Positions 4,922-21,181 of a stretch of DNA of 35,575 nt are shown one piece after another. A program made the translations under genes and the position numbers. Each line of letters begins with the position of its first letter. The first letter of the stretch is position 1. The stretch lies in the IMG/VR virus record IMGVR_UViG_2579779007_000007; one strand, 5' to 3'. Below the pieces are notes generated by a model. It made no database searches. It was not told the DNA's origin and worked only from the letters and a program-made list of their open reading frames with translations. Source of the stretch: a virus (lineage: Duplodnaviria > Heunggongvirae > Uroviricota > Caudoviricetes).

Positions 4922-4946
4922 TACACTTGATCTAAGCGAGAAATGA

Positions 4947-4969: not shown

Positions 4970-5095
4970 TGGCGGATAACGATTATCAACCTTTATAACC
5001 TATTATAGCACGGCGACCTTTTGATAATTCTTTTTAAATCATGCATTTACGGCGGTTTTTGGTGATTTTCTGGTTAAATAATATACAAGAATTTT

Positions 5096-5117
5096 CTATC
5101 AAAATTTTTGATGAAAA
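5096..5117. repeat. direct repeat copy 2: CTATCAAAATTTTTG-ATGAAAA
   Basis: See copy 1. This copy directly abuts the iteron array. Confidence 0.5.
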
Positions 5118-5118
5118 A

Positions 5119-5239
5119 CCTACACTACAAACCTACGCTTTAAAGGGATTGGCCTACACTACACTAGCCAGTAAACCTACACTATAACACCCTCAAACCT
5201 ACACTATGAAACCTACACACCTACACTAACCCTACACTT
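5119..5239. repeat. iteron array: about 8 direct copies of CCTACAC(T/G)(A/T) in about 120 bp
   Basis: Copies start at 5119, 5132 (variant), 5153, 5176, 5198, 5212, 5220 and 5231. Several spacings are 21-23 bp. Preceded by an AT-rich tract, inside a 1.27-kb stretch with no ORF of 60 aa or more. Confidence 0.7.
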
Positions 5240-5584
5240 CAATCTCATAAGTGTATGATCTTGAAAGACATTTCACCCCACAGACCATAGAATATAAAAT
5301 TCGAACTAACGTTCTCCTTTTTGCTCGTTTTCTCTCACTACGTTCAAGAAAGATCTCGCAAAAAGAATACGGCGTAGCCGTGCGCGAAGCGCCCATCAAC
5401 ACCTTCTAAGACCTGCAAGCAGGATTCGAAAGGGATTGGATAGTTCGCTTCGCTCACGTTCACGCCTACGGCGTTCACTCGCTTTTGAAAGGATTTTCTT
5501 AGAAAGGGATTTAATACTAGTTACTAACTGATTCTAGTAAACGAACGAAGTGAGTAACAATCACTTTCTAGAAAGGTATTGGTT

Positions 5585-5613
5585 ATCCCTTCGGGATTGC
5601 AACCTTCGGTTGC
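5585..5613 (+). other. two tandem GC-stem hairpins with TTC(G) loops (candidate structured RNA element)
   Basis: ATCCC-ttc-GGGAT immediately followed by GCAACC-ttc-GGTTGC. No clean T-run follows. Confidence 0.35.
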
Positions 5614-5817
5614 TAAATTGCTTCCTGATTATTATTTCTCCAAAAGAAAGATTCTTATATTCTAAAGATACTTCTTCGTTTTGATGATGATTTAATCAAA
5701 CCATGAAGGAGGGCTTTAGCCCGACTGAATACAATCACCTTTCATAATAACAAGAATTTTCTCTTTATAAATAATAGTGAACTTACTTGATTCACTTTCT
5801 TTTAGAGGATTTCCACT

Positions 5818-6285
5818 ATGAACCATAAAATGACTACCACTACTCCTTTTATCCTTCTGGGTCTGGATTCTGATAGCTTCCACAATGACAAGTTAATGAA
5901 GATGTTCCGTGAACGTGGTTATAACATCCTTTTCAACTCTGATGAATCCCATTTCTCTAGTGCATGGTATGCGTTTTACCGTAATAAGAAGCCGACCATT
6001 GTAGTTAACTGCTTCACCGATGAAGAACGCTTAAAGTACCAGGATCTACCAGCAATTATTGTCCGTGATGATCTGCCGTTTCAAGTCCGTTCCGGTGACA
6101 TTGATCTGGGTAGCTTCGTTACTGTCTATGAACTGGATGAAGCAATGTTTAACTACGGCAAAGAAACCGCTCAGGAAGCCCCAGAAGAAGATGAACAAGA
6201 CGAAGATGACGACGACTACGCACCAATCTGTTTTTCTTCTCAGAATGGCTTCTACGGTTACGACGAAGGCTTAGATATGCTGTAA
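5818..6285 (+). CDS. hypothetical acidic protein (155 aa)
   Basis: RBS AGAGGA. N-terminal alpha/beta-like segment (PFILLGLDSDSF...), then a strongly acidic stretch EEDEQDEDDDDY. Confidence 0.55.
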   Translation: MNHKMTTTTPFILLGLDSDSFHNDKLMKMFRERGYNILFNSDESHFSSAWYAFYRNKKPTIVVNCFTDEERLKYQDLPAIIVRDDLPFQVRSGDIDLGSFVTVYELDEAMFNYGKETAQEAPEEDEQDEDDDDYAPICFSSQNGFYGYDEGLDML

Positions 6286-6320
6286 GTTAGGTCAACCCTT
6301 TGGCGTCTTGTCAAGGGGTA

Positions 6321-6349
6321 TTGACAAAAATTTCTGACTTTTTTATGAT
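6321..6349 (+). promoter_or_regulatory. sigma70-like promoter TTGACA-17 bp-TATGAT
   Basis: Consensus -35, 17-bp spacer, 5/6 match at -10. An inverted TTGTCAA lies just upstream (6309..6315). Positioned to drive the 6408 ORF and the Rha gene. Confidence 0.5.
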
Positions 6350-6407
6350 TGTCGCACTTGACAACTTTAAACCTATTTGACCTAGATTTGTAAATGGGAT
6401 GTTAATT

Positions 6408-6554
6408 ATGAACACTACTAAGAAAATTGATGGACGTAAAACCCCGAACCGCAAACCGTGGACCCCAAACCTGAATTTCTCAATGGTTGACTTCCATGAA
6501 CGCCAGCGTCGCATTCAAGAAGAAATTGATCGCGCGATTGCTGAATCTAAATGA
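6408..6554 (+). CDS. small basic protein (48 aa), hypothetical
   Basis: Manual translation MNTTKKIDGRKTPNRKPWTPNLNFSMVDFHERQRRIQEEIDRAIAESK. Its start region resembles the Rha start (ttaattatgaaYact...). Confidence 0.3.
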   Translation: MNTTKKIDGRKTPNRKPWTPNLNFSMVDFHERQRRIQEEIDRAIAESK

Positions 6555-6580
6555 GATAAAAACTTCTTATAAATAAAATT

Positions 6581-6602
6581 GTTCCGGTGATGCTGCCGGA
6601 AC
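6581..6602 (+). promoter_or_regulatory. perfect hairpin GTTCCGG-tgatgctg-CCGGAAC just upstream of the Rha RBS
   Basis: 7-bp perfect stem with no T-run after it, so possibly an attenuator, processing site or protein-binding palindrome. Confidence 0.3.
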
Positions 6603-6651
6603 TAGGAGGATCAATATCATTATCGCAAAACCGTTTAAGGGGAATTTAATT

Positions 6652-7458
6652 ATGAATACTGTTACTGCTATGAATACTACTAAAACCGCTTCCGTGTCTC
6701 TGGTTGTTGATAACACCAAACCGCTGACCATGTCTTCTCGTCAGATCGCTGAATTTACCGGAAAGAAACACTTTCACGTAAAACGCGACATTCGCGAAAT
6801 GCTGATTACCTTAGAATTAGATGAATCCAAATTTGGATGCATCTTTTTTGATCAATATGGACGCGAGCAAACAGAATATCACTTGAATGAAGAACTGACT
6901 CTGACTCTTGTCACTGGTTACAATATCCAGATGCGAAACGCGGTTATTCAGGAATGGAAGCGACTGAAAGAAGAAAATGAAAAACTTCGCTCTACTCCGG
7001 TTAACCCGTATGCAGACTTTGAAGAAACCGACTGGATCGAACTGGCGTTAAAGAAAACTCGCGAGAACAAGCAACTGATTACTCTACATCATCGCAAATC
7101 CGTAGATAGCCATTCAATGACGCGTTTGTTAGGTGCTAAAAAGGGCGCTACGAAGGTTAAAGAAGCACTGACGGCCTTACGTACTGCCGGATACATTGAG
7201 CGCGTCTATGATGAAAATAACAAGCCGTGTGGGTATGTTGCTAATGATTCCGCGATACCGTTTTGCAGCATGAACGCTCACTATCAACTTTCTTTCACTG
7301 TTGATGTGCTTCCGGTGCTGGTTGAATTGGGTGTTCTTGAAGAAGAACAAAAAGCAGCTTTGACACTGCCTAAACCGAATAACACGATCATGATTCAGAA
7401 TAAAGCGACTATCATGATTCGTCAGAATGTTGGATCGCTAGAACACTTCGGACTGTAA
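6652..7458 (+). CDS. rha: Rha-family phage regulatory protein (antirepressor-like)
   Basis: 268 aa. N-terminal SSRQIAEFTGKKHFHVKRDIREM matches the Rha-domain signature. RBS AAGGGG. Confidence 0.7.
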   Translation: MNTVTAMNTTKTASVSLVVDNTKPLTMSSRQIAEFTGKKHFHVKRDIREMLITLELDESKFGCIFFDQYGREQTEYHLNEELTLTLVTGYNIQMRNAVIQEWKRLKEENEKLRSTPVNPYADFEETDWIELALKKTRENKQLITLHHRKSVDSHSMTRLLGAKKGATKVKEALTALRTAGYIERVYDENNKPCGYVANDSAIPFCSMNAHYQLSFTVDVLPVLVELGVLEEEQKAALTLPKPNNTIMIQNKATIMIRQNVGSLEHFGL

Positions 7459-7466
7459 TAATTTTT

Positions 7467-7491
7467 GCCCCTGAATTTCAGGGGCTTTTTT
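7467..7491 (+). terminator. intrinsic terminator after rha
   Basis: GCCCCTGAA-(a)-TTCAGGGGC followed by TTTTTT. Confidence 0.7.
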
Positions 7492-7503
7492 GTATCTGTA
7501 GGT

Positions 7504-7532
7504 ATAAAAAAAGCCAACCCCGAAGGATTGGC
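7504..7532 (-). terminator. intrinsic terminator for the minus-strand 85-aa gene
   Basis: On the minus strand: GGCCAATCC-ttcg-GGGTTGGC followed by seven U. Convergent with the rha terminator. Confidence 0.5.
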
Positions 7533-7540
7533 CTAGAGAA

Positions 7541-7798
7541 TCAAATTCCTGTTGCTTCTACCATTTCACCATCAACCTGAACAAAGAATTTCAAATCAAC
7601 TTTATGAAGGGATTTGTATAGCTGGGCTATGGATAAGCCATGCTCATTTAATACCCGCTCTTTGTTCTCTTTACCTTTCGGTGCTTGATAGTACGCTTTT
7701 ACAATCGCTGCCAGTTGTTCACGATTAAAACGGGCAGGGCGACCGCGAGTAGCTTTAGTAGTCATAGTCATTTTCTCCAAATTAAAGTGAATGTTCAC
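7541..7798 (-). CDS. small DNA-binding protein (85 aa), HTH-like
   Basis: TRGRPARFNREQLAAIVKAYY...GLSIAQLYKSL pattern. Starts 2 nt after the stop of the upstream 201-aa gene. Confidence 0.5.
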   Translation of the reverse strand: MNIHFNLEKMTMTTKATRGRPARFNREQLAAIVKAYYQAPKGKENKERVLNEHGLSIAQLYKSLHKVDLKFFVQVDGEMVEATGI

Positions 7799-7800
7799 CT

Positions 7801-8406
7801 TTATTTAGAGGACTTACATTTTATCGGAAAAAGTTCTCCATCGTCAACCGACATAAAGAACTCTGCCTTAATCCCGTACTTCTTCAACCGTGAATAATAT
7901 GTACCCCGACTAATATCAACCTTGCGCAGCACTTCGAAGAACTCTTTAGGATTCCTGTAATAGTGGCTATATCGCACGTTAGCGAGTTCTACAAACAATT
8001 CCCTTGTATCACCATAGCCTTTCTTGAAAGCCACGTTACGATAGCGTGTAATGGCATGATTCAATCTCTTCTGTTTAAGCACTTCCCTGATCGGCTTCCA
8101 CTGCAACCGATAGATAGGACCGTCATCAATGCGATAATAACGCTTGATATCAAAATCAAACCAATCTCGGACTCTCCGAAACTCTGTATGTGATGTTCTA
8201 TGCTTCTTAAAGAAGTTGTGAACGTCTCTATAGCCATTATCACGGTAAAATTCTATTAAAATCTCTTTCGCTTCCTCACGGCTAAACCCAGATGTTGTGT
8301 AATCGGTCTTTAAGTGCTTATGTTTTACTGGCAAACGATATTCATGATCGGTACAACAAGACAAGGCTAATTCTACTTCATCTCTTTGTTGCTGATTAAT
8401 TAGCAT
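7801..8406 (-). CDS. hypothetical basic protein (201 aa) with C-terminal HTH-like segment
   Basis: Rich in R/K/Y. C-terminal ISRGTYYSRLKKYG is HTH-like. Divergent from the large terminase gene. Confidence 0.55.
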   Translation of the reverse strand: MLINQQQRDEVELALSCCTDHEYRLPVKHKHLKTDYTTSGFSREEAKEILIEFYRDNGYRDVHNFFKKHRTSHTEFRRVRDWFDFDIKRYYRIDDGPIYRLQWKPIREVLKQKRLNHAITRYRNVAFKKGYGDTRELFVELANVRYSHYYRNPKEFFEVLRKVDISRGTYYSRLKKYGIKAEFFMSVDDGELFPIKCKSSK

Positions 8407-8492
8407 ACACCCTCCTTAAATCTTAATACCGTATTTATCAAAATATCAACAATTTAATAAATACCTTCATATTTCGTAATGAGGGTAATTAC

Positions 8493-10400
8493 ATGAAACT
8501 GATTTCTAATAAGGCAAAATTAAAAAAGATTCTCAGAAATGCAGCCAAATATATTACGCCACCGCCTAAACTCCTTCCATCGGAATGGTGCGAAGCGAAT
8601 CTAACGCTAGTCGATGGTCCTCGTGCTGGGGATAAAGTTAAATTGCTGTCATTTCAGAAAGGCATGATTGATGCTCCTTTCCTTGAGAAGAAAAAGAAGT
8701 ACGTTTTTTGTACGAGTGCGCAGATCGGAAAGACGACCATCATGTCAGGGATCATGTTTAACCAGATGGCAAACGATCCGTGTAATATCATTATCGGGCA
8801 AAGTACCGCTAAAGAAGTGGCTATGTACTTGAATACTAAGATCCGTCCTTCTATTGAAGCATGTCCGGCATTACAGGAAGTGGTAACAGATAAGAATGAT
8901 CGTAATGCGGTAAACAACAATAACCAGATTCAGCTAAAAACAAACCATTTCCTTTACATGGTTTCTTTGACCAGTCCTTCAAGTTTGCGCGGGCGTACTG
9001 CCAAGTTAGGGATTGTAGACGAATGCGACGCAGCAACAATCACCGAAGAAGGTTGCCCGGTGGCACTAACTGCAAACCGTTTAACTACCTTTGGTGATGA
9101 AGCTCGATTGATTGTTTCTAGTACCCCGACCAATAAGCTGGGAATCATTAACCAGCAATGGTTATCAAGTGATATGCGTATGTTTTTTGTTCCGTGTCCT
9201 CATTGCGGGGAACACCAGGTGATCGAGTGGGAAAACGTTCAATTTGAATGGCGTAACATTGATGGTAAGAACTTACCCGATCCTGATACCGCTCGTTATA
9301 TTTGCCCCCACTGTAAGAACGCATGGACAGAAGGGGAACGAATCAGGGCAGTAGCGCAAGGCGAGTGGAGAGCAACCCGTGAAAGTGAAGTAGCAGGATT
9401 CTGGATCAGTCGTCTGTATTCACCTTTCAGCACGATCCGCGCTTGTGTGGTTGATTTTAGTCATGCGTGGCAATCCTTTGATTTACAATCCTTTTTTAAC
9501 ACCGTGTTAGGCAAGGTATACGACGATCAGGACACGGCAGTAGAAGCAAATGAACTGGAACAACTCAAAACAGATGTTTCTATCGAGAATATCCCTGATG
9601 ACGTGATTTTCTTGTGTGCGGGTACTGACCAGCAATTAGATCGCGCAGAAACTACGATCATGGGCGTGGCAAAGGATAAGATTTATATTCTGGATCACCG
9701 CAGCTTTTACGATCATAACTGTGAACGATATGAATCACCTGTATGGGATAGATTAATCAACTTCCATAAAACCAAATTTACTACTGTATCGGGTGATCGT
9801 GTTCCTATGCTCGCCAGCTTCCTTGATACATCGAACGGTCGATTCACTCAAGCTGGATACCGTATTTGCGGCAAGTGGAAGAACTTACACGCTATCAAAG
9901 GTAGTTCTGCTGGTAACGCTCCGATCATTCCGGTTAAACCTACCCGCACAGGTGGTCATGAATTGCTTATGCTGGGCGTTAACGTTGGGAAATCCGCTGT
10001 TCGTGAAATGCTGGTTAGAAACCTGAAAGATAATCCTCATATTGGCTTAGAAATATCAGAAACCATTCCTGATGATTATCTCGATCAGCTTTTGAGTGAA
10101 TCCATCAAGCGTACTACTACTGGCGTGCGTTGGGTGAAAAATCCAGGTAGTACCCGAAACGAGGCTCTCGACTGTCTGGTTTATAGCTATGCTGCTTCTC
10201 GCTACGTTCTTTCAAAAATGTCATGGGATAAACTCATTGCAATGAAAGACAGCTTAAACCGTGTTGTCGAAGAATCCGTAGAAGCTCCTAAATCGCAATC
10301 TGACGAGCAAATCGAAGAAAATAAGCCAATCACACGACCACAACGTAAAAACATCGCCAGACGCCCAAATAGAGGCCGTAGCTGGGTAACATCGTTCTAA
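8493..10400 (+). CDS. terL: terminase large subunit, lambda gpA family
   Basis: 635 aa. Recalled gpA-family blocks: [45 protein letters not shown]. Confidence 0.9.
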
Positions 10401-10472
10401 TAACTCGCCGTCCTTCGGGGCGGCTTACTCCTAAATATTGTTAATCCAATAACAATTAAATAAGGGGTAATT

Positions 10473-10967
10473 ATGAGTTTAGAACTAATTCCCTTAGTAA
10501 TTCGTAAAGGTGAAAAAATCACGCTGGCGAATGAAGAGGGTGTAACAATTCAGGTAGGAAATAGTAAAGGTATCATTTATCAGGTTGATGATACTCCGGC
10601 TAATCATGAGATTAAAACCTTAGATTTTGCCGAAGGTAAATATACCATCGTAACCACTTTGGAAGAAGAACTGGTATCAATGCAGGAATTAACTGTTTTA
10701 CCAGTATTCGCCAAACAATCCAAAAAAGAATATCTGCGGGAAACTATCGCCTTAATCGAGCAAGTTATTTTCGCCCGTTTATCTGGGGACGAAGCCGCAT
10801 TATCTCAAATGACAGTGAAAGGGAATACTTTCGCCTATGAGTCATTAGGTGTTCTCCAGCAATTAAAGACTGATTATGAACGTCAGTTATCAAAATTAAT
10901 TCAAGCCGAACGACGTAAACAGGGAATTAGCCCGATTAAAAATATTAAAGTACGTCTTACGCGATAA
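10473..10967 (+). CDS. hypothetical head-associated protein (164 aa)
   Basis: Sits between terminase and portal, with the AAGGGGTAAT-type RBS common to the late genes. Confidence 0.55.
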   Translation: MSLELIPLVIRKGEKITLANEEGVTIQVGNSKGIIYQVDDTPANHEIKTLDFAEGKYTIVTTLEEELVSMQELTVLPVFAKQSKKEYLRETIALIEQVIFARLSGDEAALSQMTVKGNTFAYESLGVLQQLKTDYERQLSKLIQAERRKQGISPIKNIKVRLTR

Positions 10968-10977
10968 GGGGTAAATC

Positions 10978-12489
10978 ATGTTTAATCTTTTTCGACGCAA
11001 AAAGGCGGTAGAAACTCCAGTTAAAACTAATCACCGCCAACAACAACCAAAAATTTTCATCGACAAACAAGTAGAAAAATTTCAGAAAGATTTGTCTAAG
11101 CGTTCTTTGGGCTTAGTCGGTGATCGAATTGATGGGCAGCTTCAACAAGATACTATCACCGGAACGTTCAATAAGGCTCTCAAATCGAACGGTAAGCGCC
11201 TTTATGATCAGGGTCGTACTCTGGCCTTAAACACTTCCGTAGGCAGTCGATACACGCAATACATCACCGATATGGTGGTAGGTACTGGCCTAGATCCGAA
11301 GCCGTCAATCGTTAAATCAAATGGCAAACTTGATAGCGCACTGAATAAGCAGATCGAGAATGCTTTCTGGAAGTGGGCGCAGAATGCTAAACGCTTCTCT
11401 CGTAACGGTCGCTTTAACTTCCGTGAATTGCTGGTAATGGCTGAACGTGAGCGCGTTATGGGTGGTGAGTGTTTCATCGTTTTAACTAAAGAAAACAATG
11501 AGTTAAATGTTTCTATCCTGTCTGCTGATAAGTGCGACTGGACTCTCAACCGTGAAGTGAGCAAAGAACGTGCGATATATCAAGGTGTGGAGTATGCCGT
11601 AGAAACGATGAAGCCCGTGGCATACTGGTTTCGTAAAGTCAACCTACTGACTCAGACCTACACTGGTGATAACTATCGCGTCGATGCTTCGCAAGTATGC
11701 CATTATTATCAACCGCTTACCGCCGAATCCCTGCGTGGTGTGACTGACTTCCTGCCAGTGATTAAGGATATCGCACATCAAGATGCATTCCGCGAAACTG
11801 CGATCATCCAGAAACGCATTGCAGCTAGCTCTATGGGCTTTATCGAACGTCCGAAAGATTCTGGTGACGATTTTGATACTGGTGAAGAGGATGAACAATA
11901 TCAAGCGCCGGAAGTAGTACAGGACTTTGCACCGGGTACTATTCAGGAATTGCCGGAAGGGGCAACGATTAAGTCAATTCAGAGCGCCCAAAGTGGCGAT
12001 GACTTTAACAGCTTCAATGATGCGATGTTTACTAGCGTATCAATGGGCTTAGGCGTGTTTAAACAGGGCTTAACTGGTGATACCAGCCAGATCAACTACA
12101 GCGCAGCCCGCTACGGCGAATTGCTTCAACGCACACGAGTTAAAGCACTGCAAAACAAATTAATTGAAACAGTGGTATTGCCAATTTTTGAAGCATATCT
12201 ACGCCATTATTCCGCGCGTGGTATTGTTCCGATTCGTATTACTGCAATTCCGCATATTATCGACAACACTACTATTATTCGTCCGCGTTTTGAATCCGTC
12301 GATCCTATTAAAGACGTAAACGCTGATATTGCTTTAATTGATAAAGGACTTAAATCACGTACTGCCGTTATATTAGAACGTGGTGATGATCCTGAAAAAG
12401 TATTCTCAGAGATTCAAGCCGAAAAGAGCGCACTAAATATTATCGTTGATGGTGAGGGTGAAGAAAAAAATTCCCCAGCCGATCCCTAA
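10978..12489 (+). CDS. portal protein (lambda gpB-like)
   Basis: 503 aa, position after terminase, C-terminal block resembling lambda-type portals. Confidence 0.8.
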   Translation: MFNLFRRKKAVETPVKTNHRQQQPKIFIDKQVEKFQKDLSKRSLGLVGDRIDGQLQQDTITGTFNKALKSNGKRLYDQGRTLALNTSVGSRYTQYITDMVVGTGLDPKPSIVKSNGKLDSALNKQIENAFWKWAQNAKRFSRNGRFNFRELLVMAERERVMGGECFIVLTKENNELNVSILSADKCDWTLNREVSKERAIYQGVEYAVETMKPVAYWFRKVNLLTQTYTGDNYRVDASQVCHYYQPLTAESLRGVTDFLPVIKDIAHQDAFRETAIIQKRIAASSMGFIERPKDSGDDFDTGEEDEQYQAPEVVQDFAPGTIQELPEGATIKSIQSAQSGDDFNSFNDAMFTSVSMGLGVFKQGLTGDTSQINYSAARYGELLQRTRVKALQNKLIETVVLPIFEAYLRHYSARGIVPIRITAIPHIIDNTTIIRPRFESVDPIKDVNADIALIDKGLKSRTAVILERGDDPEKVFSEIQAEKSALNIIVDGEGEEKNSPADP

Positions 12490-12534
12490 TAACCAACGGG
12501 GGCGCAATGCCCCCAATTAATTAAAGGTGATTAA

Positions 12535-14547
12535 ATGCTTAAATTTCGCCGCGATCTTAACGGTTACGGTGGAGTTATTAATGAAGGGCATAACGATCAA
12601 TACGAATTTGAAATTGCTTTCTCAAGTACACAGCCTTATCAGCGCCAATTTTGGGATGAGCAAAATCAAGAAATGGTGGTATTAGATGAAATTCTGGTAC
12701 ATACACCGGAAGCGGTTGATCTGTCTCGTCTGAATAATAACGCTCCGTTGCTGTTCAATCACAATTTCGATAATCACATTGGTGTAGTTTGTAACGCTCG
12801 AATCGATGCGGATAACGTAGGTCGTGCTCTGGTTAAGTTCTCCAAGCATGGGACTTTGGCTAATGATATTCGTAATAAAGTCATTGAAGGTACGATGGAA
12901 AAAATTTCGGTCGGCTATGACATTAAAGAATATCACATCGACTACACCAAAGGACAATTGATTGTTACTAAGTGGGCACCCTATGAACTCTCATTTGTCA
13001 CCGTTCCCGCAGACGATACGGTCGGTTTAAATCGCTCTCTAAATACTATCACAGTTAATTTGGAGGCTAAACGCGATATGACTAAAGAACAAATCGAAGA
13101 AATCAAAGAAGAACAAGAACCCGCTCAGGTTGAAGAAACTCCGGTAGAAGAAAATAAAGAACCGGAAGTTGAAGAAACTCAAGAGCGCCAAGTTGAAGAG
13201 AATAAAGAAGATGAAAATCTCGAAGACGGAAAAGACGCTGAACATCCTGAAAGTGTTGATGATGATAGTTCAACTGTTCGGGAAACAGAAGAAGTAAAAG
13301 AAGAACGTGAAGCTGCTCCGGTTGAAGAAGAAAAAACCGAGGAAGTGGCTGAACGTTCCGAAGAAGACGAATTAGAAATTCGCGAAATTGCACGCGAGTT
13401 AAATATTAACGAAGACGATGAAGAATTTAAACGCGCATTGGCAAATAAAGAAATTACGCCGGAAGCATTCCGCACTAAGGCACTAAATAACATTACCAAT
13501 GCTCAACGTAATAACGAACAAATTAATAAGGAACAAATCATGGAAAAAACTTTCGATCTTAATAACGTAATCCGCTCCCTGGTAGATGGCGACGTGCTCG
13601 GCGCTAACGAAGCTGAATATTCCGCAATGGCTGCTACTGCAACTATGCAGCGTGGTCGTGCTGCTCGTGGTGGCTCTGTATTCGTTCCGGCTGCTGCTAT
13701 GCGTGCTGCTGCTGATGGCAACACCAAAGCTAATCTGGTTGCTATCACTGACGAAAAACTGATGACTGAATCCTACATCGAAATGCTGATGCCTCAGAGT
13801 GTTTTAGGCCGCCTCGGGGTGACTGTTTATAGTGGCTTGACTTCTCCGACCGCTATTCCAAAAATGACTAAATCCAGCGTTGACGCTTTCGGATTCGTAG
13901 ATGAAAATGGCGCTGCCCCCGAGTCACATGCGGAATTTTCGAACGTGAAACTGTCTCCGAAAACTTTTGCTGGTGGCAACCCGATCAGCCGTCAGTCGCT
14001 GAAAACCGTTCCGGGCATCGCTACCCTGATCACCGATCACATTAACAAATCTGTTCGGATCAAACTGGAACAACTGATTCTGTCTGATAAAGAAAATGCT
14101 CGTGGTCCGGCTGGTCTGGTTAAGCAACTGGTAGACGCTAGCCGCGTTACCAAGAAAGCTGCTTTCTCTTATAAAGATTTCCTCAAGGAGATTGCTCAGC
14201 TTACGGACGCTGGCGTTCCTGCTCAGGCGATCAAGTTTGCGATGAGCGGTGCAACTGCTGCTGAACTGGAATCTACCCTGAAAGATAACGGCGTTTCCGG
14301 TTATATCATCGAAAACGGCAAACTGGCTGGTTACGAAGTAGTTACTTCTGGCGTTATTCCGGCAGATCACATCGTTCTGGGTGACTTCTCCGGTATTACC
14401 ATCGGTGAGTGGGGCGGTCTGGAACTTGACATGGATCTAACTACATATCGGGATCGTGGGGCGGTAGTGCCTAGAATCTTTGTAGATTTGGACTACGTTG
14501 TAGCACAGCCGGAAGCGCTGAAAGTTCTTCACATCTCCGCTGACTGA
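12535..14547 (+). CDS. fused prohead protease (HK97/S78-like) - acidic scaffold-like linker - HK97-fold major capsid protein
   Basis: 670 aa. Residues 1-170 match the S78 prohead protease pattern, residues about 180-330 are E-rich, the C-terminal 340 aa are HK97-MCP-like. Ends with TGA. Confidence 0.8.
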   Translation: MLKFRRDLNGYGGVINEGHNDQYEFEIAFSSTQPYQRQFWDEQNQEMVVLDEILVHTPEAVDLSRLNNNAPLLFNHNFDNHIGVVCNARIDADNVGRALVKFSKHGTLANDIRNKVIEGTMEKISVGYDIKEYHIDYTKGQLIVTKWAPYELSFVTVPADDTVGLNRSLNTITVNLEAKRDMTKEQIEEIKEEQEPAQVEETPVEENKEPEVEETQERQVEENKEDENLEDGKDAEHPESVDDDSSTVRETEEVKEEREAAPVEEEKTEEVAERSEEDELEIREIARELNINEDDEEFKRALANKEITPEAFRTKALNNITNAQRNNEQINKEQIMEKTFDLNNVIRSLVDGDVLGANEAEYSAMAATATMQRGRAARGGSVFVPAAAMRAAADGNTKANLVAITDEKLMTESYIEMLMPQSVLGRLGVTVYSGLTSPTAIPKMTKSSVDAFGFVDENGAAPESHAEFSNVKLSPKTFAGGNPISRQSLKTVPGIATLITDHINKSVRIKLEQLILSDKENARGPAGLVKQLVDASRVTKKAAFSYKDFLKEIAQLTDAGVPAQAIKFAMSGATAAELESTLKDNGVSGYIIENGKLAGYEVVTSGVIPADHIVLGDFSGITIGEWGGLELDMDLTTYRDRGAVVPRIFVDLDYVVAQPEALKVLHISAD

Positions 14548-14676
14548 ACTAGCGTAGAACCTTCTGAACCTTCCCCCGATTTGGGGGAAGAAAATCTGAT
14601 TCCATCTCAGGAAGAAGAAGTTCAAGAGGTTACGGCGAAAGCCACAGTTAAAAAACAACGTAAAACTAAAGAATAA
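14548..14676 (+). other. in-frame 42-codon extension after the capsid TGA (candidate readthrough segment)
   Basis: Same frame as 12535..14547, no ATG. Encodes TSVEPSEPSPDLGEENLIPSQEEEVQEVTAKATVKKQRKTKE, then TAA. Confidence 0.45.
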
Positions 14677-14681
14677 TAATT

Positions 14682-14710
14682 AGCCCTGCCTTAACGGTGG
14701 GGCTTTTTTG
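14682..14710 (+). terminator. intrinsic terminator after the capsid extension
   Basis: AGCCCTGCC-ttaac-GGTGGGGCT followed by TTTTTT. Near-identical copy at 20632..20660. Confidence 0.7.
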
Positions 14711-14739
14711 TATGTAAATACTCCATAAAGGGGGTAACT

Positions 14740-15030
14740 ATGTTCAAATTATCAGAATCACAATTATCAAGAATGTTTAAGAGTGCTCCTGTATTTTCGG
14801 TGGAAGGTGGTAAATCAATTCGTGCTTATCATGAAATTACCACTACCGACGAACAAGGGGTAATTACAGAATCAGAATTTCTATTTTGTCGTGAGGGAGA
14901 CTTAAATCAGGGTGATGTTGTCATTGTAGACGGTGAACGCTTCAAAGTTCAATACGTTAAGCGCAATGGTGATAATACTTCTGATTGCTTTATTGCTCGT
15001 GCAGGGGGTACACATGCTCGCTACCGTTAA
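14740..15030 (+). CDS. head-tail connector/adaptor protein (putative, 96 aa)
   Basis: Position after capsid gene, RBS AAGGGGGTAA. Confidence 0.55.
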   Translation: MFKLSESQLSRMFKSAPVFSVEGGKSIRAYHEITTTDEQGVITESEFLFCREGDLNQGDVVIVDGERFKVQYVKRNGDNTSDCFIARAGGTHARYR

Positions 15031-15439
15031 TAATATGCCTAGACTGAAAATCAAACGCGCCTTGCAGGATATTATCGAACAAGATTTAGGTCTGGCTTTA
15101 AACGTAGAACAAACTCAGCAAGGCTTTATTAGTGATGACGTGGTTTGTTGGATTACCGGAATGAATGAGACTTACAATAGGGTCCGTGGTGGTAATGCAA
15201 TGCAAGCTGAATGCGTTATCGAAATGCAGTTGTATTCTCAGAATCATGAAACCAAAATTCATGAGGGTATTTGCCAGATAATCCAGATTCAGCCAGATAA
15301 CCCACGTTTTAAAGATTTGGGCTTCTCAATTTCAGATATCACTCCAGTAGCCTCTAATACCGATTATGACGATGATTCTAGTGATGGGGGTATCGTTGGG
15401 ACACTTAGCCTTAAATTTTCTTATCTAGCGCGTTTTTAA
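15014..15439 (+). CDS. head-tail joining / tail completion protein (putative, 141 aa)
   Basis: Start chosen at the ATG preceded by AGGGGG, overlapping the upstream stop. The ORF-track start at 14933 is probably too far upstream. Confidence 0.5.
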   Translation: MLATVNNMPRLKIKRALQDIIEQDLGLALNVEQTQQGFISDDVVCWITGMNETYNRVRGGNAMQAECVIEMQLYSQNHETKIHEGICQIIQIQPDNPRFKDLGFSISDITPVASNTDYDDDSSDGGIVGTLSLKFSYLARF

Positions 15440-15448
15440 GGGGTAATA

Positions 15449-16282
15449 ATGAATATTACACAAGATAACTTAGATATTTTCACTGGATCACATGTTGAAG
15501 TGTCGATCTCTAACCAGATAGACAATCAGGTCGACTTTTTCGATCCTAGCTTTAGTTCTATGGAGAACATCGCAGCATTCCCTACGCTAACCGAATCCAC
15601 AGAGATAGAAACTCTGGAAGAGTACGATCAGGACGCTACGGGGAAACTTGCTGGTTATCGTAGACTGGAACCGACAACACTCACATTAAACCGTGTTCTT
15701 GACGATGAACATCAAGCAATGTTGATGAAAGCGGTAGAGGATAAAACACCTTTACGCTTCCGTATGTTCTATGTTGTGAACTCTGGCTATAGTGCTGCTA
15801 ACACTGGTTACTATGTCATCTATGACGCTTATGTCACTAGTCACAAAACCCGTGGCGCAGATAACAAAGCTGTAACACTGGAATTTAAACTTGAACCAGA
15901 TGGCGGGATTTTGGCAAGGGGTATAGCGACCGAGGGAAAAATTCTGCGACAAGGGGATTATGGCGTAGGTGCAGGTGTACATCCATTCACGGGTCCAATT
16001 GATAGTGATGCTTTAGCAGGAAACCGTTTCGTAACTTACAAGGGAACTGCTAGCGGTAATCCATACTCAGCCGACACATCATTAATTCACCTTCAAGCTA
16101 ATGAGCATGGCGCATGGCAATTAACCTGTAATACTTCCGGTGCACCACGTTTACGTGTCCGAAATATTCAGGAAAACGGTCGCTCTGAATGGATCAAGGT
16201 ATATTCCACCAATGAGAAACCGACACCTAGCGAAATTGGCGCAGTGGCTAAGACTGACCGGATCGATTTCGGCGAATACTAA
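15449..16282 (+). CDS. tail-tube-like protein with C-terminal fibre-like extension (paralog of the 20030 gene)
   Basis: 277 aa. N-terminus (NLDIFTGSHV...GKL...LTLT) aligns with the 156-aa protein at 20030. C-terminus carries KPTPSEIGA, also present in the tail fibre. Confidence 0.55.
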   Translation: MNITQDNLDIFTGSHVEVSISNQIDNQVDFFDPSFSSMENIAAFPTLTESTEIETLEEYDQDATGKLAGYRRLEPTTLTLNRVLDDEHQAMLMKAVEDKTPLRFRMFYVVNSGYSAANTGYYVIYDAYVTSHKTRGADNKAVTLEFKLEPDGGILARGIATEGKILRQGDYGVGAGVHPFTGPIDSDALAGNRFVTYKGTASGNPYSADTSLIHLQANEHGAWQLTCNTSGAPRLRVRNIQENGRSEWIKVYSTNEKPTPSEIGAVAKTDRIDFGEY

Positions 16283-16315
16283 AGGATTCTCCTACCTAAA
16301 TAAAACATGAACGTT

Positions 16316-16346
16316 GGGAGGTTAACGCCTCCCTTATTCCTGTTTT
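16316..16346 (+). terminator. putative intrinsic terminator
   Basis: GGGAGG-ttaacg-CCTCCC followed by a T-rich tract. Confidence 0.45.
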
Positions 16347-16364
16347 ATAGTGAGGTGATTCTAG

Positions 16365-19300
16365 ATGCAATCAATCCAATTTAAACGCACACAAACGGCT
16401 GGTAAAAAGCCGACGCCGGAACAATTATCACAGGGTGAGATCGCCTTACAACTGGCGGACCATGTGATTTACACCAAAGACAAAAATAATAACGTAGTCC
16501 AAATTAGTGTTTCTCCAGAAAAACACGCTGAACTTAACACTAAAGTAGACAATAACAAAACTAGCACTGACCGTGTTATTGCTTCCAACAAACAAGAGGC
16601 CGCTAATAATCTGGCTAGTGCTAAAGCTGAACTGAATCAGACTATTACCACGAAAGATACAGCGACCAATAAGCGCATTGATGCTACCAACACCACTGTT
16701 AGTAACTTAACCCAGACAGTTACGGCAAATAAAACCGATGCCGACACTAAGATCAATAACCTTACGGGGACCGTATCTGCGAATAAGACCGCAATTGAAA
16801 GAACCGTTGCCGCAAACAAATCTGATGCAGATAGCAAACATGCAGCTTTAACGAAAACGGTCACTGACAATAACACCGCGATTAACAACAAGGTTAATAC
16901 CACTAACACCAACGTTAGCAACTTAACTAAAACTGTTACTGCAAATAAAACCGATGCAGATAACAAAATTTCTAGCTTAACTAGCGCGGTTGCAGCTAAC
17001 AAGACAGCGATCGAAAAGACTGTTTCCGACAATAAGAAAGACGCGGATACTAAGATTACCAATCTTACTGGCACTGTTAATAGCAACCATACCGCAATTA
17101 ACAACAAGGTAGACCAGAATAAATCTTCTACTGATGCCGCAATTGCAGCCGCTAACAAACGAATTGATGGTATTGAAGGTAGCAATGATGCTCTTTACAT
17201 CAAGAAGAATACCAATACTAAGCATGGTGGGTATCTGTTAAGCAAGACAGCTAACTATCTGGAAGACCAGACATCACGAGATCTTAACTACTTTGGTGCT
17301 TTCCGTACCAATGGTCAAGATGGACTCATGGATCTAACTCTTAACGTTCCTCACTCTTCCGGTAAAGCGCACGGTCGCGGATTTACTTTCCGTTATGCGT
17401 CTGGTGGATCTCGTGTTGAAACCTATGGTTTTGATAGAGAAGGACAGAAGAACTTTAGCTATAAGATGTATCACGAAGGTGATAAACCGACTCCTGCTGA
17501 AATTGGCGCATATACCAAAGGCGAAATTGATAAGATGTTTATTAAAAATGTCACAATGTCTGTTCCTTCTGGTAGTGAATCCCGTGCTTATTTCAAGATT
17601 GCTACGGCTACGATCCCACAAAATGGTCGTATGGTAATGCTTCGTATCTTCGGTGGTAATGGTTATAACGTTAACTCCTATGATCAGGTTGATTTCCTTG
17701 AAATTGTTATCCGTAGTGGTAACGATAGACCTAAAGGTGTTAGTGTTGCTGCATATCGTCGAAATGCTCTTAACGTTCATCAAGTATTTGCGGTTAATAC
17801 TTCCGGTGATAACTACGACATTTACGTTAACTACGGTCGTTATACTGATAACGTTATTGTCGAATATGGTAAGACTAGCGGTGTTTCACTGACTGTTCAT
17901 GACACCCCAGATATGACTAACGTTAAGCCGTCTACTGGTGTTACAGATGGACGTGTTATTACAATGTTCAATACCGAAAACAAGGCCGGAACGTTGATGT
18001 TTGATAATAACGGTCAGGGAACATATGATATTGTCAGTTTGAATAACGATTCAGGTACTGGTAAAAAATATCTGCGTAAATTCCGTAGTAAAGCCGCAGA
18101 AACAATCTGGCATGAAACTGTTCAAGGTAACGTATATCGTTTAGCGACTGGCACTACCGATTCTAGCGAAGTTCTACGAATCACTGGTCGCACTATGTAT
18201 ACTGGTAAAGCTGTTTTTGATGCCGGATCTAATACTATTCGTATGCAGCGACCGAATGGTCAAAGTAACTATTTGGAATATTGGGATAACCGTAACGGTG
18301 CAAATAAACGTCAAGGTTGGATCGGTTATGGAAATGCCGATACTAACGCTATGCAGATGTATAACGATAGCGGTACTAACAATATTGGCTTAGAACAAAG
18401 CGGTCAAATCTCTCTGAATACTGGATCTACTAAAGTAGTTTATACCAACGGCGAGTATGTATCTGCTAACTCAAATGCATTCCGTATGATTTACGGTAAC
18501 TATGGTGCATTCTGGCGTAATGATGGTCAAAACGTATATTTTCTGTCTACTGCCGAAAATGATAAATTTGGTGGTTGGAACGGCTATCGTCCATTCATTT
18601 ACAATCTGGGTAGCGGTAATGTTACTTTGGGTGGTGATGGTAACGAAGGTGCATTAGTCTTAGAACGTGCAAGTCGTGCAGCTCGTTTTGCTGGAAACGC
18701 TTTCATCAAAGGTCAACATTTAACACTTGATGCTGGTGCTGGACAATCCCGCGACTATTTCCGTTTTAACCATTGGGGTGATAGCAATAACGCTCGCGAC
18801 AACATTCTATATCTCGAAGACAGCAAAGGACGCCATTTCAGCACCGAACGTAATATGGCTACAGGTGCATTAAAAGCATACTTCTTAGGAGATCTTGAAG
18901 TTGCTGGTCAAATGCGATGGGGTAAGAATACCGGACAATCTAGCTTCAATATTCGTGCATGGGGTAATGATACTCGTAAACAAGTATTAGAATGCGCAGA
19001 TGAAAGCGGCTGGCATTTCTACACACAGCGTGCTGGCGGTCCTGATACTACCGCAATCGAGTTTAGCGTAAACGGTAAAATTAACGCTCCCCGACTGTCT
19101 ATTAGTCAGGATGCAACCATTCCTAAGTTTAATAGCGGTTTTGGTGTTGGTGTTGCTAACGGATTGGGTGGAAATTCTATTGTTTTAGGCGATAGTGATA
19201 CTGGATTTAAACAAAACGGTGATGGTGTCCTTGATACCTACGCTAATAACGTTAATGTTGTTCGCCATACGTCAGGCGGTGTTACATTTAACCGTCGTGT

Positions 19301-19973
19301 TGTTGTTGCTAACAAAAATGGTTTAGGTTATTCCGATATCTCTGATGTAACTCGTGACCGTGCTCCATTCCTGGTTAACATGGATAGTATTAAGGGGTCT
19401 GCTGCATATTTCCCGATCATCGCTGGTTACAGTAACTTAGGTGATGTTGGTTATCGTCAGTCCTTCGAGTTTGGTTGGACGGGTAGCGGGTCGAATAGCA
19501 CATGGCGTACTGGTATTATCCGTATGCGTGGCGATAACGCCAACGGGCAGCAAGCACGCTGGGAATTTACTATGGATGGTGATTTTACCTGCCCCCGTAA
19601 CGGTAGCTTTAACGATGTTTACATTCGCTCTGACTCCCGTTTGAAGATTAACAAGGAAGAATTACAGGACGGCGCATTAGAGAAAGTAAACTCCCTGAAA
19701 GTCTACACCTACGATAAAGTTAAATCTCTTTCAGATGACACAGTGGTTAAACGCGAAGTAGGTATTATTGCTCAGGATCTGGAAGAAGTGTTGCCGGAAG
19801 CAGTAGGTATTCAATCCACCGAAGATCCAGAACAACCGGAAGCAATTAAGACTATTTCTAACTCTGCTGTTAATGCCTTGATTATTAAAGCGATTCAGGA
19901 AATGGACGCCAAATATCAAGCTAAGATTGAAGCATTGACTAAAGAGATTGCCGAACTCAAAGCAACTAAATAA
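16365..19973 (+). CDS. long tail fibre with C-terminal S74 intramolecular-chaperone domain
   Basis: 1202 aa. Repetitive shaft, KPTPAEIGAY motif, C-terminal YIRSDSRLKINKEEL... matching the autoproteolytic chaperone domain of T5 pb1 and endosialidase-type fibres. Confidence 0.85.
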   Translation: MQSIQFKRTQTAGKKPTPEQLSQGEIALQLADHVIYTKDKNNNVVQISVSPEKHAELNTKVDNNKTSTDRVIASNKQEAANNLASAKAELNQTITTKDTATNKRIDATNTTVSNLTQTVTANKTDADTKINNLTGTVSANKTAIERTVAANKSDADSKHAALTKTVTDNNTAINNKVNTTNTNVSNLTKTVTANKTDADNKISSLTSAVAANKTAIEKTVSDNKKDADTKITNLTGTVNSNHTAINNKVDQNKSSTDAAIAAANKRIDGIEGSNDALYIKKNTNTKHGGYLLSKTANYLEDQTSRDLNYFGAFRTNGQDGLMDLTLNVPHSSGKAHGRGFTFRYASGGSRVETYGFDREGQKNFSYKMYHEGDKPTPAEIGAYTKGEIDKMFIKNVTMSVPSGSESRAYFKIATATIPQNGRMVMLRIFGGNGYNVNSYDQVDFLEIVIRSGNDRPKGVSVAAYRRNALNVHQVFAVNTSGDNYDIYVNYGRYTDNVIVEYGKTSGVSLTVHDTPDMTNVKPSTGVTDGRVITMFNTENKAGTLMFDNNGQGTYDIVSLNNDSGTGKKYLRKFRSKAAETIWHETVQGNVYRLATGTTDSSEVLRITGRTMYTGKAVFDAGSNTIRMQRPNGQSNYLEYWDNRNGANKRQGWIGYGNADTNAMQMYNDSGTNNIGLEQSGQISLNTGSTKVVYTNGEYVSANSNAFRMIYGNYGAFWRNDGQNVYFLSTAENDKFGGWNGYRPFIYNLGSGNVTLGGDGNEGALVLERASRAARFAGNAFIKGQHLTLDAGAGQSRDYFRFNHWGDSNNARDNILYLEDSKGRHFSTERNMATGALKAYFLGDLEVAGQMRWGKNTGQSSFNIRAWGNDTRKQVLECADESGWHFYTQRAGGPDTTAIEFSVNGKINAPRLSISQDATIPKFNSGFGVGVANGLGGNSIVLGDSDTGFKQNGDGVLDTYANNVNVVRHTSGGVTFNRRVVVANKNGLGYSDISDVTRDRAPFLVNMDSIKGSAAYFPIIAGYSNLGDVGYRQSFEFGWTGSGSNSTWRTGIIRMRGDNANGQQARWEFTMDGDFTCPRNGSFNDVYIRSDSRLKINKEELQDGALEKVNSLKVYTYDKVKSLSDDTVVKREVGIIAQDLEEVLPEAVGIQSTEDPEQPEAIKTISNSAVNALIIKAIQEMDAKYQAKIEALTKEIAELKATK
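16640..17170 (+). repeat. intragenic tandem repeats encoding two ~69-aa shaft repeats
   Basis: Repeated NLT.TVTANKTDAD.KI..LT..V.ANKTAIE.TV. The low-complexity repeats create the spurious antisense ORF 16637..17185. Confidence 0.6.
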
Positions 19974-20029: not shown

Positions 20030-20500
20030 ATGTCTCAATTTAATGATATTTTTACTGGTGGTCTGGTAAGTCTGTTCTATCACGCTGATACCACTAACAC
20101 CGCTCTCGATCACTCCGGTTACGAAGAAATTAAAGAGTGTGCTGGTTTTCCTGAAACTGGTATCGAGCGCGGTACTGTAGAAGTTAAATCCTTCTCTTCT
20201 CAGTATAACCGTAAGCTGGTAGGGAAGCTGAACGTTCCTGATCTGACTCTTACGGTGAATTACATCCCCGGGGAGAGTGTCCATGAGAAGCTCATAAAGG
20301 CTGCCGAAGACGGTACTCGAATTCAGATTAAGATTGAATACTATGTTGATGCAGCAAAACAGACTGGTATTCGCACCGCTTTCAACGGCTTCATTTCTAA
20401 AGTTGCTATGAACGGTGGCGATGAAGAAGTGGTAACTAAAGAGTTTACCTTCGCGGTGGACGGAAAGCCGATCAAACAGGAAATCTTCACTGCCGGATGA
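20030..20500 (+). CDS. major tail tube protein (putative)
   Basis: 156 aa, upstream of the chaperone and tape-measure genes. Paralogous to the N-domain of 15449..16282. Ends with TGA. Confidence 0.6.
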   Translation: MSQFNDIFTGGLVSLFYHADTTNTALDHSGYEEIKECAGFPETGIERGTVEVKSFSSQYNRKLVGKLNVPDLTLTVNYIPGESVHEKLIKAAEDGTRIQIKIEYYVDAAKQTGIRTAFNGFISKVAMNGGDEEVVTKEFTFAVDGKPIKQEIFTAG

Positions 20501-20626
20501 ACTAACGAAGAACTTCCTTTAATAGAACCGGAACCACTACCGGAACATGAAGCGGTGGTGATTCCAGAAGTAGAAGAAGTTACGGCGAAAGCCACAGCAA
20601 AACGAGGCCGCAAGGCTAAGAATTAA
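20501..20626 (+). other. in-frame 41-codon extension after the tail-tube TGA (candidate readthrough segment)
   Basis: Same frame as 20030..20500, no in-frame ATG. Encodes TNEELPLIEPEPLPEHEAVVIPEVEEVTAKATAKRGRKAKN, then TAA. Confidence 0.45.
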
Positions 20627-20631
20627 TTTTA

Positions 20632-20660
20632 AGCCCTGCCTTAATGGTGGGGCTTTTTTA
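20632..20660 (+). terminator. intrinsic terminator after the tail-tube extension
   Basis: AGCCCTGCC-ttaat-GGTGGGGCT followed by TTTTTT. Confidence 0.7.
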
Positions 20661-20674
20661 TTGGAGTAATCAAA

Positions 20675-21181
20675 ATGGCAAATGTCGTTAAAGTTCCTGG
20701 CTGGATCGGGTCATCTGCTGTATCGGTGACGGGTAAGCGATGGATGAAAGAAGCACTAACAGCTTTAAAAGTTCCGGCTCCGCGTAATATGTCGGCAATG
20801 GCTGGTCGTGGTATGGATACGGTTGTAGCTACTGCTGCATGGTCTACTTCATTGGGTAATAACTGGGGGGTAACTGCTTCAAACTATCCTGTTTCCGGTA
20901 TGCAAAGCAAAGGATCTATGGAGAACCCCGAAAACGTGGGCGTAGGGCGTCTGATTGGCGTTATCGTTGGTCAATTCAATGGCGGTACTCCTACTATGGC
21001 TGTATATCTCCAGAACGGTAGAGCGGGGAATATAACCGTTAATTTGGGTGGTGCTACTGTCACTGTTCCTTATAACAGTATGCAAAGTGGTTTTCATTAC
21101 TATTGGTTAAGCAATCCTCCGGCTGCTTTCCTCAATAACATTAAGAAGACTGGCACTAAGCAGACTTTGAAAATCTCTTAA
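20675..21181 (+). CDS. hypothetical tail-associated protein (168 aa)
   Basis: ORF with RBS GGAG, located between tail tube and chaperone genes. Confidence 0.5.
   Translation: MANVVKVPGWIGSSAVSVTGKRWMKEALTALKVPAPRNMSAMAGRGMDTVVATAAWSTSLGNNWGVTASNYPVSGMQSKGSMENPENVGVGRLIGVIVGQFNGGTPTMAVYLQNGRAGNITVNLGGATVTVPYNSMQSGFHYYWLSNPPAAFLNNIKKTGTKQTLKIS

Follow-up and report, generated by a model that had tools for sequence, protein, structure and literature searches.

A fused protease-scaffold-capsid gene and a candidate UGA readthrough cassette behind the capsid and tail tube genes of an Escherichia coli prophage

The IMG/VR virus record IMGVR_UViG_2579779007_000007 (Caudoviricetes), analyzed here over its whole length of 35,575 nucleotides (nt) and referred to as the window, is 100% identical to a prophage of Escherichia coli CE0007a, and most of the region is carried by 44 of 5426 complete E. 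coli genomes. Its head module contains a single open reading frame (ORF) of 670 amino acids (aa), located at 12535 to 14547 with an ATG start and a TGA end, in which a prohead protease, an acidic spacer, a delta-like scaffold domain, and an HK97-fold major capsid protein are fused. The stop codons of this fusion gene and of the tail tube gene are each followed by a homologous cassette whose features suggest UGA readthrough. A readthrough form of the capsid protein had been mentioned in passing in a preliminary description of this DNA; it turned out to be the best-supported unusual feature of the locus, with the same cassette standing behind the tail tube gene and a frame conserved across 79 loci. 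All coordinates below refer to the window and, unless noted otherwise, to its plus strand.

The capsid gene closes with UGA followed by A in a conserved context (14545 to 14548; the TGA itself at 14545 to 14547), which we propose to be a leaky stop. Behind it lies an in-frame extension of 42 codons, TSVEPSEPSPDLGEENLIPSQEEEVQEVTAKATVKKQRKTKE, closed by TAA TAA (14548 to 14679, with the two stops at 14674 to 14679). An 8-bp G+C-rich hairpin, CUUCCCCC-GAUUU-GGGGGAAG, is located 22 nt after the UGA (14570 to 14590), and a Rho-independent terminator (14682 to 14709) forms the 3' end of the cassette. Taken alone, the open run means little because 42 codons are met at 26% of random window positions; it is the comparative pattern that counts. 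A second cassette (20501 to 20659) follows the gene of the tail tube (major tail) protein (20030 to 20500; 156 aa; phrog_158, E 2.3e-21; "phage tail tube protein" in the Prokaryotic Genome Annotation Pipeline [PGAP]), which also ends in TGA-A. It consists of 41 in-frame codons, TNEELPLIEPEPLPEHEAVVIPEVEEVTAKATAKRGRKAKN, a TAA (20624 to 20626), and a terminator (20632 to 20659) near-identical to the one after the capsid gene. The two cassettes, the only copies in the window, are homologous from the stop codon to the T-run of the terminator and share one layout: UGA-A, a Glu/Pro-rich spacer, a basic tail (VTAKATAK..RK.K), a stop, and a terminator. A census of the stop codons of 30 plausible window genes returned 28 TAA and 2 TGA, the latter belonging to the capsid and tail tube genes, both in the TGA-A context.

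The cassettes were compared across 54 capsid loci (17 further E. coli loci and 37 IMG/VR loci) and 25 tail loci (24 related viral contigs and the window), i.e., 79 loci, many of which are closely related and do not count as independent samples. All 54 related capsid loci have TGA-A, and the codon before it specifies Asp or Glu in every case. The capsid extension is invariably open in frame 0, spans 27, 28, 33, 42, 43, 44, or 45 codons, and ends at a double stop in each locus, while the other two frames always hold stops. It also occurs behind a second capsid lineage that is only 38% identical (loci L067 to L070). The relatives at ∼40% identity and those further away lack it; most of their capsid genes stop with TAA, and in none is the last residue Asp or Glu. 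Likewise, in the window and in 24/24 related viral contigs, the stop of the tail gene is TGA-A and the in-frame extension behind it spans 36, 39, or 41 codons; in one distant relative, the gene ends in TAA-T and has no extension. The UGA-A is therefore kept in 79/79 loci, in a genome otherwise using UAA. The ten length classes of both extensions are all multiples of three, as are all eight indel events inferred within them (P about 1.5e-4 if frame were irrelevant), and those that lie a few bases beyond the closing stop are one nucleotide long. Furthermore, four non-homologous versions of the spacer have 48 to 55% Glu/Pro/Asp in frame 0, with 0 to 10% and stops in the other frames. Collectively, the invariant UGA-A, the open frame 0, and the multiple-of-three indels argue for programmed readthrough.

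The cassettes also carry conserved RNA features. In long-form loci, the 8-bp stem is invariant and the three substitutions seen all lie in the loop; an extended pairing around this hairpin, seen in the window, was considered and dropped, since most relatives do not conserve it. In short-form loci, an unrelated hairpin of 11 bp lies 10 nt downstream of the UGA and shows a compensatory change, and the tail tube cassette has a hairpin of ∼12 bp located ∼30 nt after the UGA. The idea of a stimulatory hairpin at a fixed distance is weakened by these three versions, at 10, 22, and ∼30 nt from the stop. The capsid cassette fragment folds with a z of -5.5. A 19-nt core, GTTACGGCGAAAGCCACAG, is identical in both cassettes (14629 to 14647 and 20579 to 20597) and invariant in divergent versions. 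It holds a small GNRA hairpin (GGC-GAAA-GCC), of which locus L015 has a compensatory variant (GGA-GAAA-UCC), and the constraint on this core may act on either the RNA or the peptide (VTAKAT). Scanning of positions 12300 to 15000 against Rfam returned no family at E<=1. These RNA features could tune readthrough, stabilize the 3' end, or both.

Several other candidates were discarded. The sole possible separate start of the capsid extension, a TTG at 14581, has no Shine-Dalgarno (SD) sequence, reads TCG in locus L017, and has no counterpart in the short variants; across the compared loci, none of the in-frame start codons within the capsid extension is conserved. The window contains no tRNA gene that could act as a suppressor. 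One apparent exception, locus L002 (E. coli ETEC1703, NZ_CP122923, about 3490 to 3520), has a TAG stop and an out-of-frame extension, but the A-run before the stop has 5 A versus 6 in the near-identical locus L017, which would reflect a sequencing error in the homopolymer or else a genuine inactivating mutation. Finally, the short constitutive Ala/Lys/Pro tails of the ∼40%-identity relatives are too short and too dissimilar to be homologues of the extension.

On this comparative pattern, we consider that the capsid UGA-A stop is probably leaky and subject to programmed readthrough, and we favor, with a shade more reserve, a functional readthrough of the UGA-A cassette in general. Several observations weigh against this reading, besides the close relatedness of many of the loci. 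The extension shows no synonymous excess (29 nucleotide variants encode 28 peptides, and variable sites are distributed 7/11/12 by codon position), so that only frame and composition are conserved. Since the homology of the cassettes begins at the stop codon, the in-frame relation was inherited with the cassette rather than selected twice independently. The conserved hairpins, with their compensatory changes, and the invariant 19-nt core point to a role at the RNA level, and some of the conservation could stem from it. In addition, termination at UGA is more efficient in wild E. coli strains than in K-12. A megablast search of the capsid region against 50,697 phage records gave no match, i.e., no isolated phage is alike at the DNA level, and the cleavage that we propose below for the capsid precursor, together with its site, is an extrapolation from the HK97 paradigm.

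The strongest competing explanation is that of an untranslated 3' cassette in which hairpins and terminator stabilize or attenuate the transcripts of those two virion genes that are most strongly expressed, the open frame being functionless and any readthrough incidental noise. The presence of a conserved hairpin in every version of the cassette, the compensatory changes in L055 (U-A to C-G) and L015, the restriction of substitutions to the loop in the long form, the invariance of the core in both copies, the lack of synonymous excess, the low folding z, and the terminator at the end of the cassette would all be accommodated by such an element. However, it does not account for indels that come exclusively in multiples of three when single-base indels occur just downstream, for four unrelated spacers that are open and Glu/Pro-rich in frame 0 only, for the tandem or second stop that closes this frame, or for a UGA-A present at every one of the 79 loci while 28 of the 30 genes use UAA; furthermore, an RNA role and translation can coexist. 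We thus regard this explanation as unlikely, albeit one to be taken seriously. Decoding of the UGA as selenocysteine, with the downstream hairpin as a bacterial selenocysteine insertion sequence (SECIS) element, is in our view very improbable. A stable hairpin does occur within ∼10 to 30 nt of the UGA, a spacing loosely SECIS-like by comparison with E. coli fdhF, and the loops of both capsid-gene hairpins begin with G. Against this, the hairpin comes in three versions that share neither sequence nor loop (GAUUU, GAAA, or 10 nt) nor spacing to the UGA; E. coli SelB requires a GGUC-type loop and a bulged U, a combination not seen in any of them; Rfam has no match at E<=1; and a structural selenocysteine in a disordered tail is implausible.

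We therefore retain programmed readthrough as the preferred interpretation of both cassettes. In its complete form, which we hold with slightly better than even confidence, an E. coli tailed double-stranded DNA prophage would extend both its major capsid and its tail tube proteins by programmed UGA readthrough, not frameshifting, via one portable, duplicated cassette that recombines between divergent capsid lineages; the products would be a few flexible basic tails, plausibly serving weak adhesion to the cell surface, and the hairpins may tune their level. Specifically, a small fraction of ribosomes would insert an amino acid, probably Trp as in Qβ, at the UGA and read on through 42 codons, whereby a few capsid subunits per virion would gain the Glu/Pro-rich spacer and the basic tail; the tail tube cassette would do the same for a few tail subunits. 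At percent-level readthrough, each virion would be expected to hold a handful of head subunits and a few tail subunits with the extension. The stop-spanning tryptic peptides would read VLHISAD-W-TSVEPSEPSPDLGEENLIPSQEEEVQEVTAK for the capsid protein and QEIFTAG-W-TNEELPLIEPEPLPEHEAVVIPEVEEVTAK for the tail tube protein. The use of the extensions in weak surface adhesion, by analogy with the immunoglobulin (Ig)-like extensions of other phages, is speculative.

The fusion gene itself starts directly after the portal gene (10978 to 12489), which is preceded by the terminase and head-tail joining protein genes, and tail genes also lie nearby. The gene annotation of the window places no separate protease or scaffold gene near it. 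In CE0007a, PGAP calls one 670-aa coding sequence, named "phage major capsid family protein". A G+C-rich hairpin, CGGGGGCGCAATGCCCCCA (12497 to 12515), lies within the 45 nt that separate the portal gene from the capsid gene; a terminator scan rated it as terminator-like on the minus strand only. The preliminary description had interpreted the ORF as a single polypeptide consisting of an S78-type prohead protease, a scaffold-like linker, and an HK97-fold capsid domain, and had proposed structure prediction as a check. Profile, structure-prediction, and fold-search evidence upholds this architecture, and the protease, helical, and shell segments are all resolved (AlphaFold2, Foldseek). An AlphaFold2 model built with 81 diverse homologues shows four segments (protease, acidic spacer, helical domain, and shell), plus a low-confidence break before the shell.

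The N-terminal domain (residues ∼22 to 165; 12598 to 13029), as delimited by Pfam, the alignment to HK97 gp4, and the domain model, is by these criteria a prohead serine protease of the S78 (HK97 gp4) type, with predicted activity on the capsid precursor. Peptidase_S78 (PF04586) matches residues 40 to 162 (E 1.8e-10; 41.7 bits versus a cut-off of 21), and TIGR01543 matches with E 3.8e-9, under its equivalog cut-off. The catalytic-motif residues His76 (12760 to 12762), Ser125 (12907 to 12909), and Glu151 (12985 to 12987) align to His65, Ser114, and Glu141 of HK97 gp4, of which we take His65 and Ser114 to be catalytic, and they are invariant in 81 homologues, down to ∼22% identity. This region is β-rich in the whole-protein model, with a predicted local distance difference test (pLDDT) score of 70 to 90, and the domain modeled alone reached a predicted template-modeling (TM) score (pTM) of 0.73. 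The top three Foldseek matches of the protease model were all T4 gp21 (5jbl; probability 1.0; TM 0.50 to 0.56) at a modest E of 2.6e-3, and herpesvirus proteases (assemblins) were the next, weaker matches.

The segment between protease and shell, previously described as one scaffold-like linker, is consistent with a scaffold but does not behave as a single linker: in the AlphaFold2 model, it is divided into a disordered acidic spacer and a folded helical domain. The spacer (residues ∼166 to 272; 13030 to 13350) has a pLDDT of <50 over residues 166 to 183 and 191 to 272 and is rich in indels among relatives. Residues 171 to 335 contain 29% Glu and carry a net charge of -36, whereas the core (residues 184 to 283) reaches 38% Glu, nearly all of it encoded by GAA. 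The helical, delta-domain-like segment (residues ∼273 to 394; 13351 to 13716; pLDDT 67 to 85) has AlphaFold2-predicted helices at residues 276 to 288, 296 to 303, 309 to 339 (31 residues), 342 to 351, 357 to 372, and 386 to 394. As modeled, this helical domain is a likelier scaffold than the acidic spacer and would be the counterpart of the HK97 delta domain. The composition of the spacer also explains three overlapping ORFs on the minus strand (13039 to 13245, 13103 to 13393, and 13179 to 13499, spanning 13039 to 13499), which the preliminary description had already called spurious. They do exist as ORFs, overlapping in mutually exclusive frames. The coding strand opposite them has 66% purines and 43 GAA codons, and it is because of this GAA-rich composition that the complement is poor in stop codons. 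We found no evidence supporting gene status for any of the three; they are compositional shadows of the GAA-rich spacer, not genes.

A predicted maturation-cleavage zone (residues ∼393 to 412; 13711 to 13770; pLDDT <50) separates the scaffold helices from the capsid fold. Residue 11 of the stand-alone capsid protein of roseophage R4C (8gta; 268 aa) aligns to residue 411 here, and this alignment start, together with the break in model confidence, would place the maturation cleavage somewhere within residues ∼386 to 412. The remainder (residues 413 to 670; 13771 to 14544; pLDDT 80 to 93) is the HK97-fold major capsid (shell) domain, as identified by Pfam and Foldseek. Phage_capsid (PF05065) matches residues 412 to 666 (E 2.6e-25; 89.8 bits versus a cut-off of 24.2), the sequence match to 8gta has E 1e-24, and Foldseek aligned the shell domain to 8gta with TM 0.75 and to HK97 Head II with TM 0.71 to 0.74. 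The HK97 chainmail is formed by Lys169-Asn356 isopeptide crosslinks, which are not required for PF05065 membership. Ala461 (13915 to 13917) sits opposite Lys169 in a weak BLAST alignment (E 0.001), and HK97-type isopeptide crosslinks are therefore probably not a feature of this capsid, as far as such an alignment indicates.

As to the integrity of the fused frame, the preliminary description had named a sequencing error that separates the domains into distinct genes as the finding that would overturn it. The identical protein, along with >100 clusters of 93 to 98% identity and 657 to 672 aa, is encoded in independent assemblies of E. coli, Shigella, and E. albertii. Because the frame is intact throughout these clusters, the fusion ORF is no sequencing artefact. 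The notion that the gene is a pseudogene, or that separate genes for protease, scaffold, and capsid protein were joined by a frameshift or the loss of a stop, is accordingly extremely improbable: the fused frame is also preserved in relatives down to 23% identity, and nothing was found in its favor. The sole related case is locus L003 (E. coli FXCREC043, NZ_CP195866, 1136 to 3916), in which an IS1A insertion within the acidic spacer splits the fusion gene. PGAP treats the two halves as pseudogenes, one named "HK97 family prohead protease" and the other "major capsid protein", thereby independently confirming what both ends are. One alternative leaves the frame intact: translation would also start internally, in frame, at Met182 or Met336 and additionally yield a protease-less scaffold-capsid protein, much as Nu3 is nested in C in lambda, with only a minority of shell subunits carrying the protease. 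SD-like motifs precede both ATGs (GGAGG 11 nt before Met182 and AGGA before Met336), and the product from Met336 would have 335 aa, near the length of HK97 gp5 (385 aa). However, neither Met182 nor Met336 is conserved in the divergent relatives L016, L018, and L019, the SD spacing of Met182 is long, and the search for conserved internal initiation sites in the fusion gene among relatives found none. Internal initiation has no other support, and we consider it improbable.

Overall, a head-assembly polyprotein that undergoes processing, combined with a leaky UGA-A, is with good likelihood the best explanation of the locus. Following the HK97 paradigm, the precursors would co-assemble on the portal into a procapsid with their N-terminal ∼400 residues inside, each shell subunit thus bringing its own protease and scaffold to the procapsid interior. 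The protease domains, concentrated by assembly, would cleave the chain at the scaffold/shell junction or close to it and digest the ∼400 residues on its N-terminal side; the fragments would exit, making room for DNA, and the shell would expand during DNA packaging. The product would be a mature shell protein of ∼29 kDa derived from a 74-kDa precursor. By analogy, such processing is the normal behavior expected of the family already named "major capsid and protease fusion proteins".

Compared with HK97 gp4 and gp5, the fusion protein has the same protease family with aligned His/Ser/Glu, the same shell fold, and a helical N-terminal scaffold that is part of the shell polypeptide and presumably removed by the protease. 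HK97, in contrast, has two genes and a sub-stoichiometric protease, whereas here the protease is covalently linked at 1:1 via an acidic spacer of ∼100 residues. The sole change relative to HK97 is thus a protease joined covalently upstream of a capsid gene that already bears its own scaffold. The contrast with the separate genes of lambda and HK97, drawn in the preliminary description, is true yet unsurprising, as the fusion belongs to a large, already named family.

Indeed, the protease-capsid fusion is very common, has been named and published, and is not novel. The profile phrog_617 covers residues 23 to 665 over profile positions 26 to 621 of 626 (E 7e-94), i.e., an end-to-end match, and PHROG 4523, also matched, carries the name "major head and protease protein". 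NCBIfam NF045541 (scaf_prot_MCP2, "prohead protease/major capsid protein fusion protein") matches only the N-terminal half (E 2e-37; 129 bits versus a cut-off of 525); being below the cut-off, the protein represents a different subfamily of the same architecture. Fused relatives were retrieved by tblastn in phiHAP-1, VP882, and vB_EcoM-ep3, as well as in phages of Xanthomonas, Ralstonia, Rhodobacter, and Synechococcus, and all five distant phage relatives examined are fused. A scan of IMG/VR gave 80 loci ranging from 98% to 23% identity, ∼76 of which keep a frame of 600 to 690 codons over both domains. In a library clustered at 50% identity, 493 clusters matched with E<=1e-30, and 149 of the 150 best representatives have 565 to 893 aa. 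Scans of a species-representative genome collection found no relatives. The fusion has been called "common in small-genome siphoviruses" (PMC9671004) and was noted in Rhodobacter cluster RcC (PMC8601537).

The present protein shares with these fusion families (PHROG 617/4523 and NF045541; phiHAP-1, VP882, vB_EcoM-ep3, Rhodobacter RcA/RcC, and Microbacterium cluster EE; small siphoviruses and hapunaviruses) an N-terminal S78 protease, a variable linker, a C-terminal PF05065 domain, the position of the ORF directly after the portal gene, and 26 to 43% identity over both domains. In contrast, the distant members examined have no UGA-A with an in-frame extension and mostly end in TAA. Two of the relatives carry further ORFs after the capsid gene. 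Locus L019 (Escherichia phage DCP80, PQ671644, 1 to 6929) has a 28-codon ORF with its own ATG (MERAISPMSLGAEALDAAPVKKSKSASG) just past the capsid stop, in another frame. This 141-kb record is classified as a T4-like Gaprivervirus, yet its left end holds a module of siphovirus type (terminase, portal, and fused protease-capsid gene), and the assembly may be chimeric. In phiHAP-1 (locus L020, NC_010342, about 3377 to 3595), the 283-nt "gap" after the capsid gene consists of a terminator followed by an unannotated ORF of ∼73 codons (MATAKPSSRVAVVSLGG...) with a good ribosome-binding site.

The tail module in which the second cassette lies has an unusual gene order: a 277-aa protein with an N terminus like that of major tail proteins (phrog_158; 15449 to 16282), a 1202-aa tail fibre (16365 to 19973), the tail tube protein, and a Gp38-like adhesin (20675 to 21181; phrog_1121). 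Parts of the region 983 to 19077 match RB49-like T-even phages at 77 to 87% DNA identity, and the RB49-like pieces suggest, from their sequence, an exchanged host-range module.

Among RNA viruses, coat proteins produced by readthrough are known both in phages and in viruses of plants and animals. The closest precedent is the A1 protein of Qβ, made by UGA readthrough at about 1 in 15 with insertion of Trp, whose extension starts with a polyproline spacer (PMC8067240). The protein proposed here from sequence would resemble A1 as a minor, C-terminally extended coat protein that arises at the UGA of the coat gene and starts its extension with a proline-rich spacer. Qβ is, however, a single-stranded RNA phage, and its extension is a folded domain of ∼200 residues needed for infection, whereas the candidate extensions of this double-stranded DNA tailed prophage have 27 to 45 residues, are probably disordered, and are the same on two structural genes. 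Frameshift-derived extended capsid proteins have been described in T7/T3 (10B), Lactobacillus phage A2, and Listeria phages A118, A500, and PSA, and in A2 and the Listeria phages the major tail protein is extended as well (PMC5009743). Common to these cases and ours would be the recoding at the 3' end of the capsid (and tail) gene and a minority of extended subunits in the virion. They differ in that the known examples rely on a -1 or +1 frameshift and often add an Ig-like domain, while the extension here is in frame behind a UGA, short, and charged, and one homologous cassette with its terminator is duplicated behind both genes. We found no report of stop-codon readthrough extending capsid or tail proteins of tailed phages in the incomplete literature covered, where the lone candidate mention was a tail-chaperone frameshift.

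The UGA-A cassette is thus a credible new variant of the recoding theme, whereas the fusion is ordinary. The fusion itself matters little, except that the PGAP label "phage major capsid family protein" hides a protease and a scaffold. Recoding at the ends of the major capsid and tail genes of tailed phages is known only as frameshifting. If real, the proposed readthrough would add a bacterial example of a conserved cassette of this kind, carried by an E. coli prophage that is common (about 1% of complete genomes) and easily tested in the best genetic host, and a virion component missed by annotation in dozens of complete E. coli genomes and many more drafts because the 130- to 190-nt gaps after the capsid and tail tube genes are left unannotated. 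It would also provide a natural system for the effects of UGA-A context and hairpins on termination by release factor 2 (RF2).

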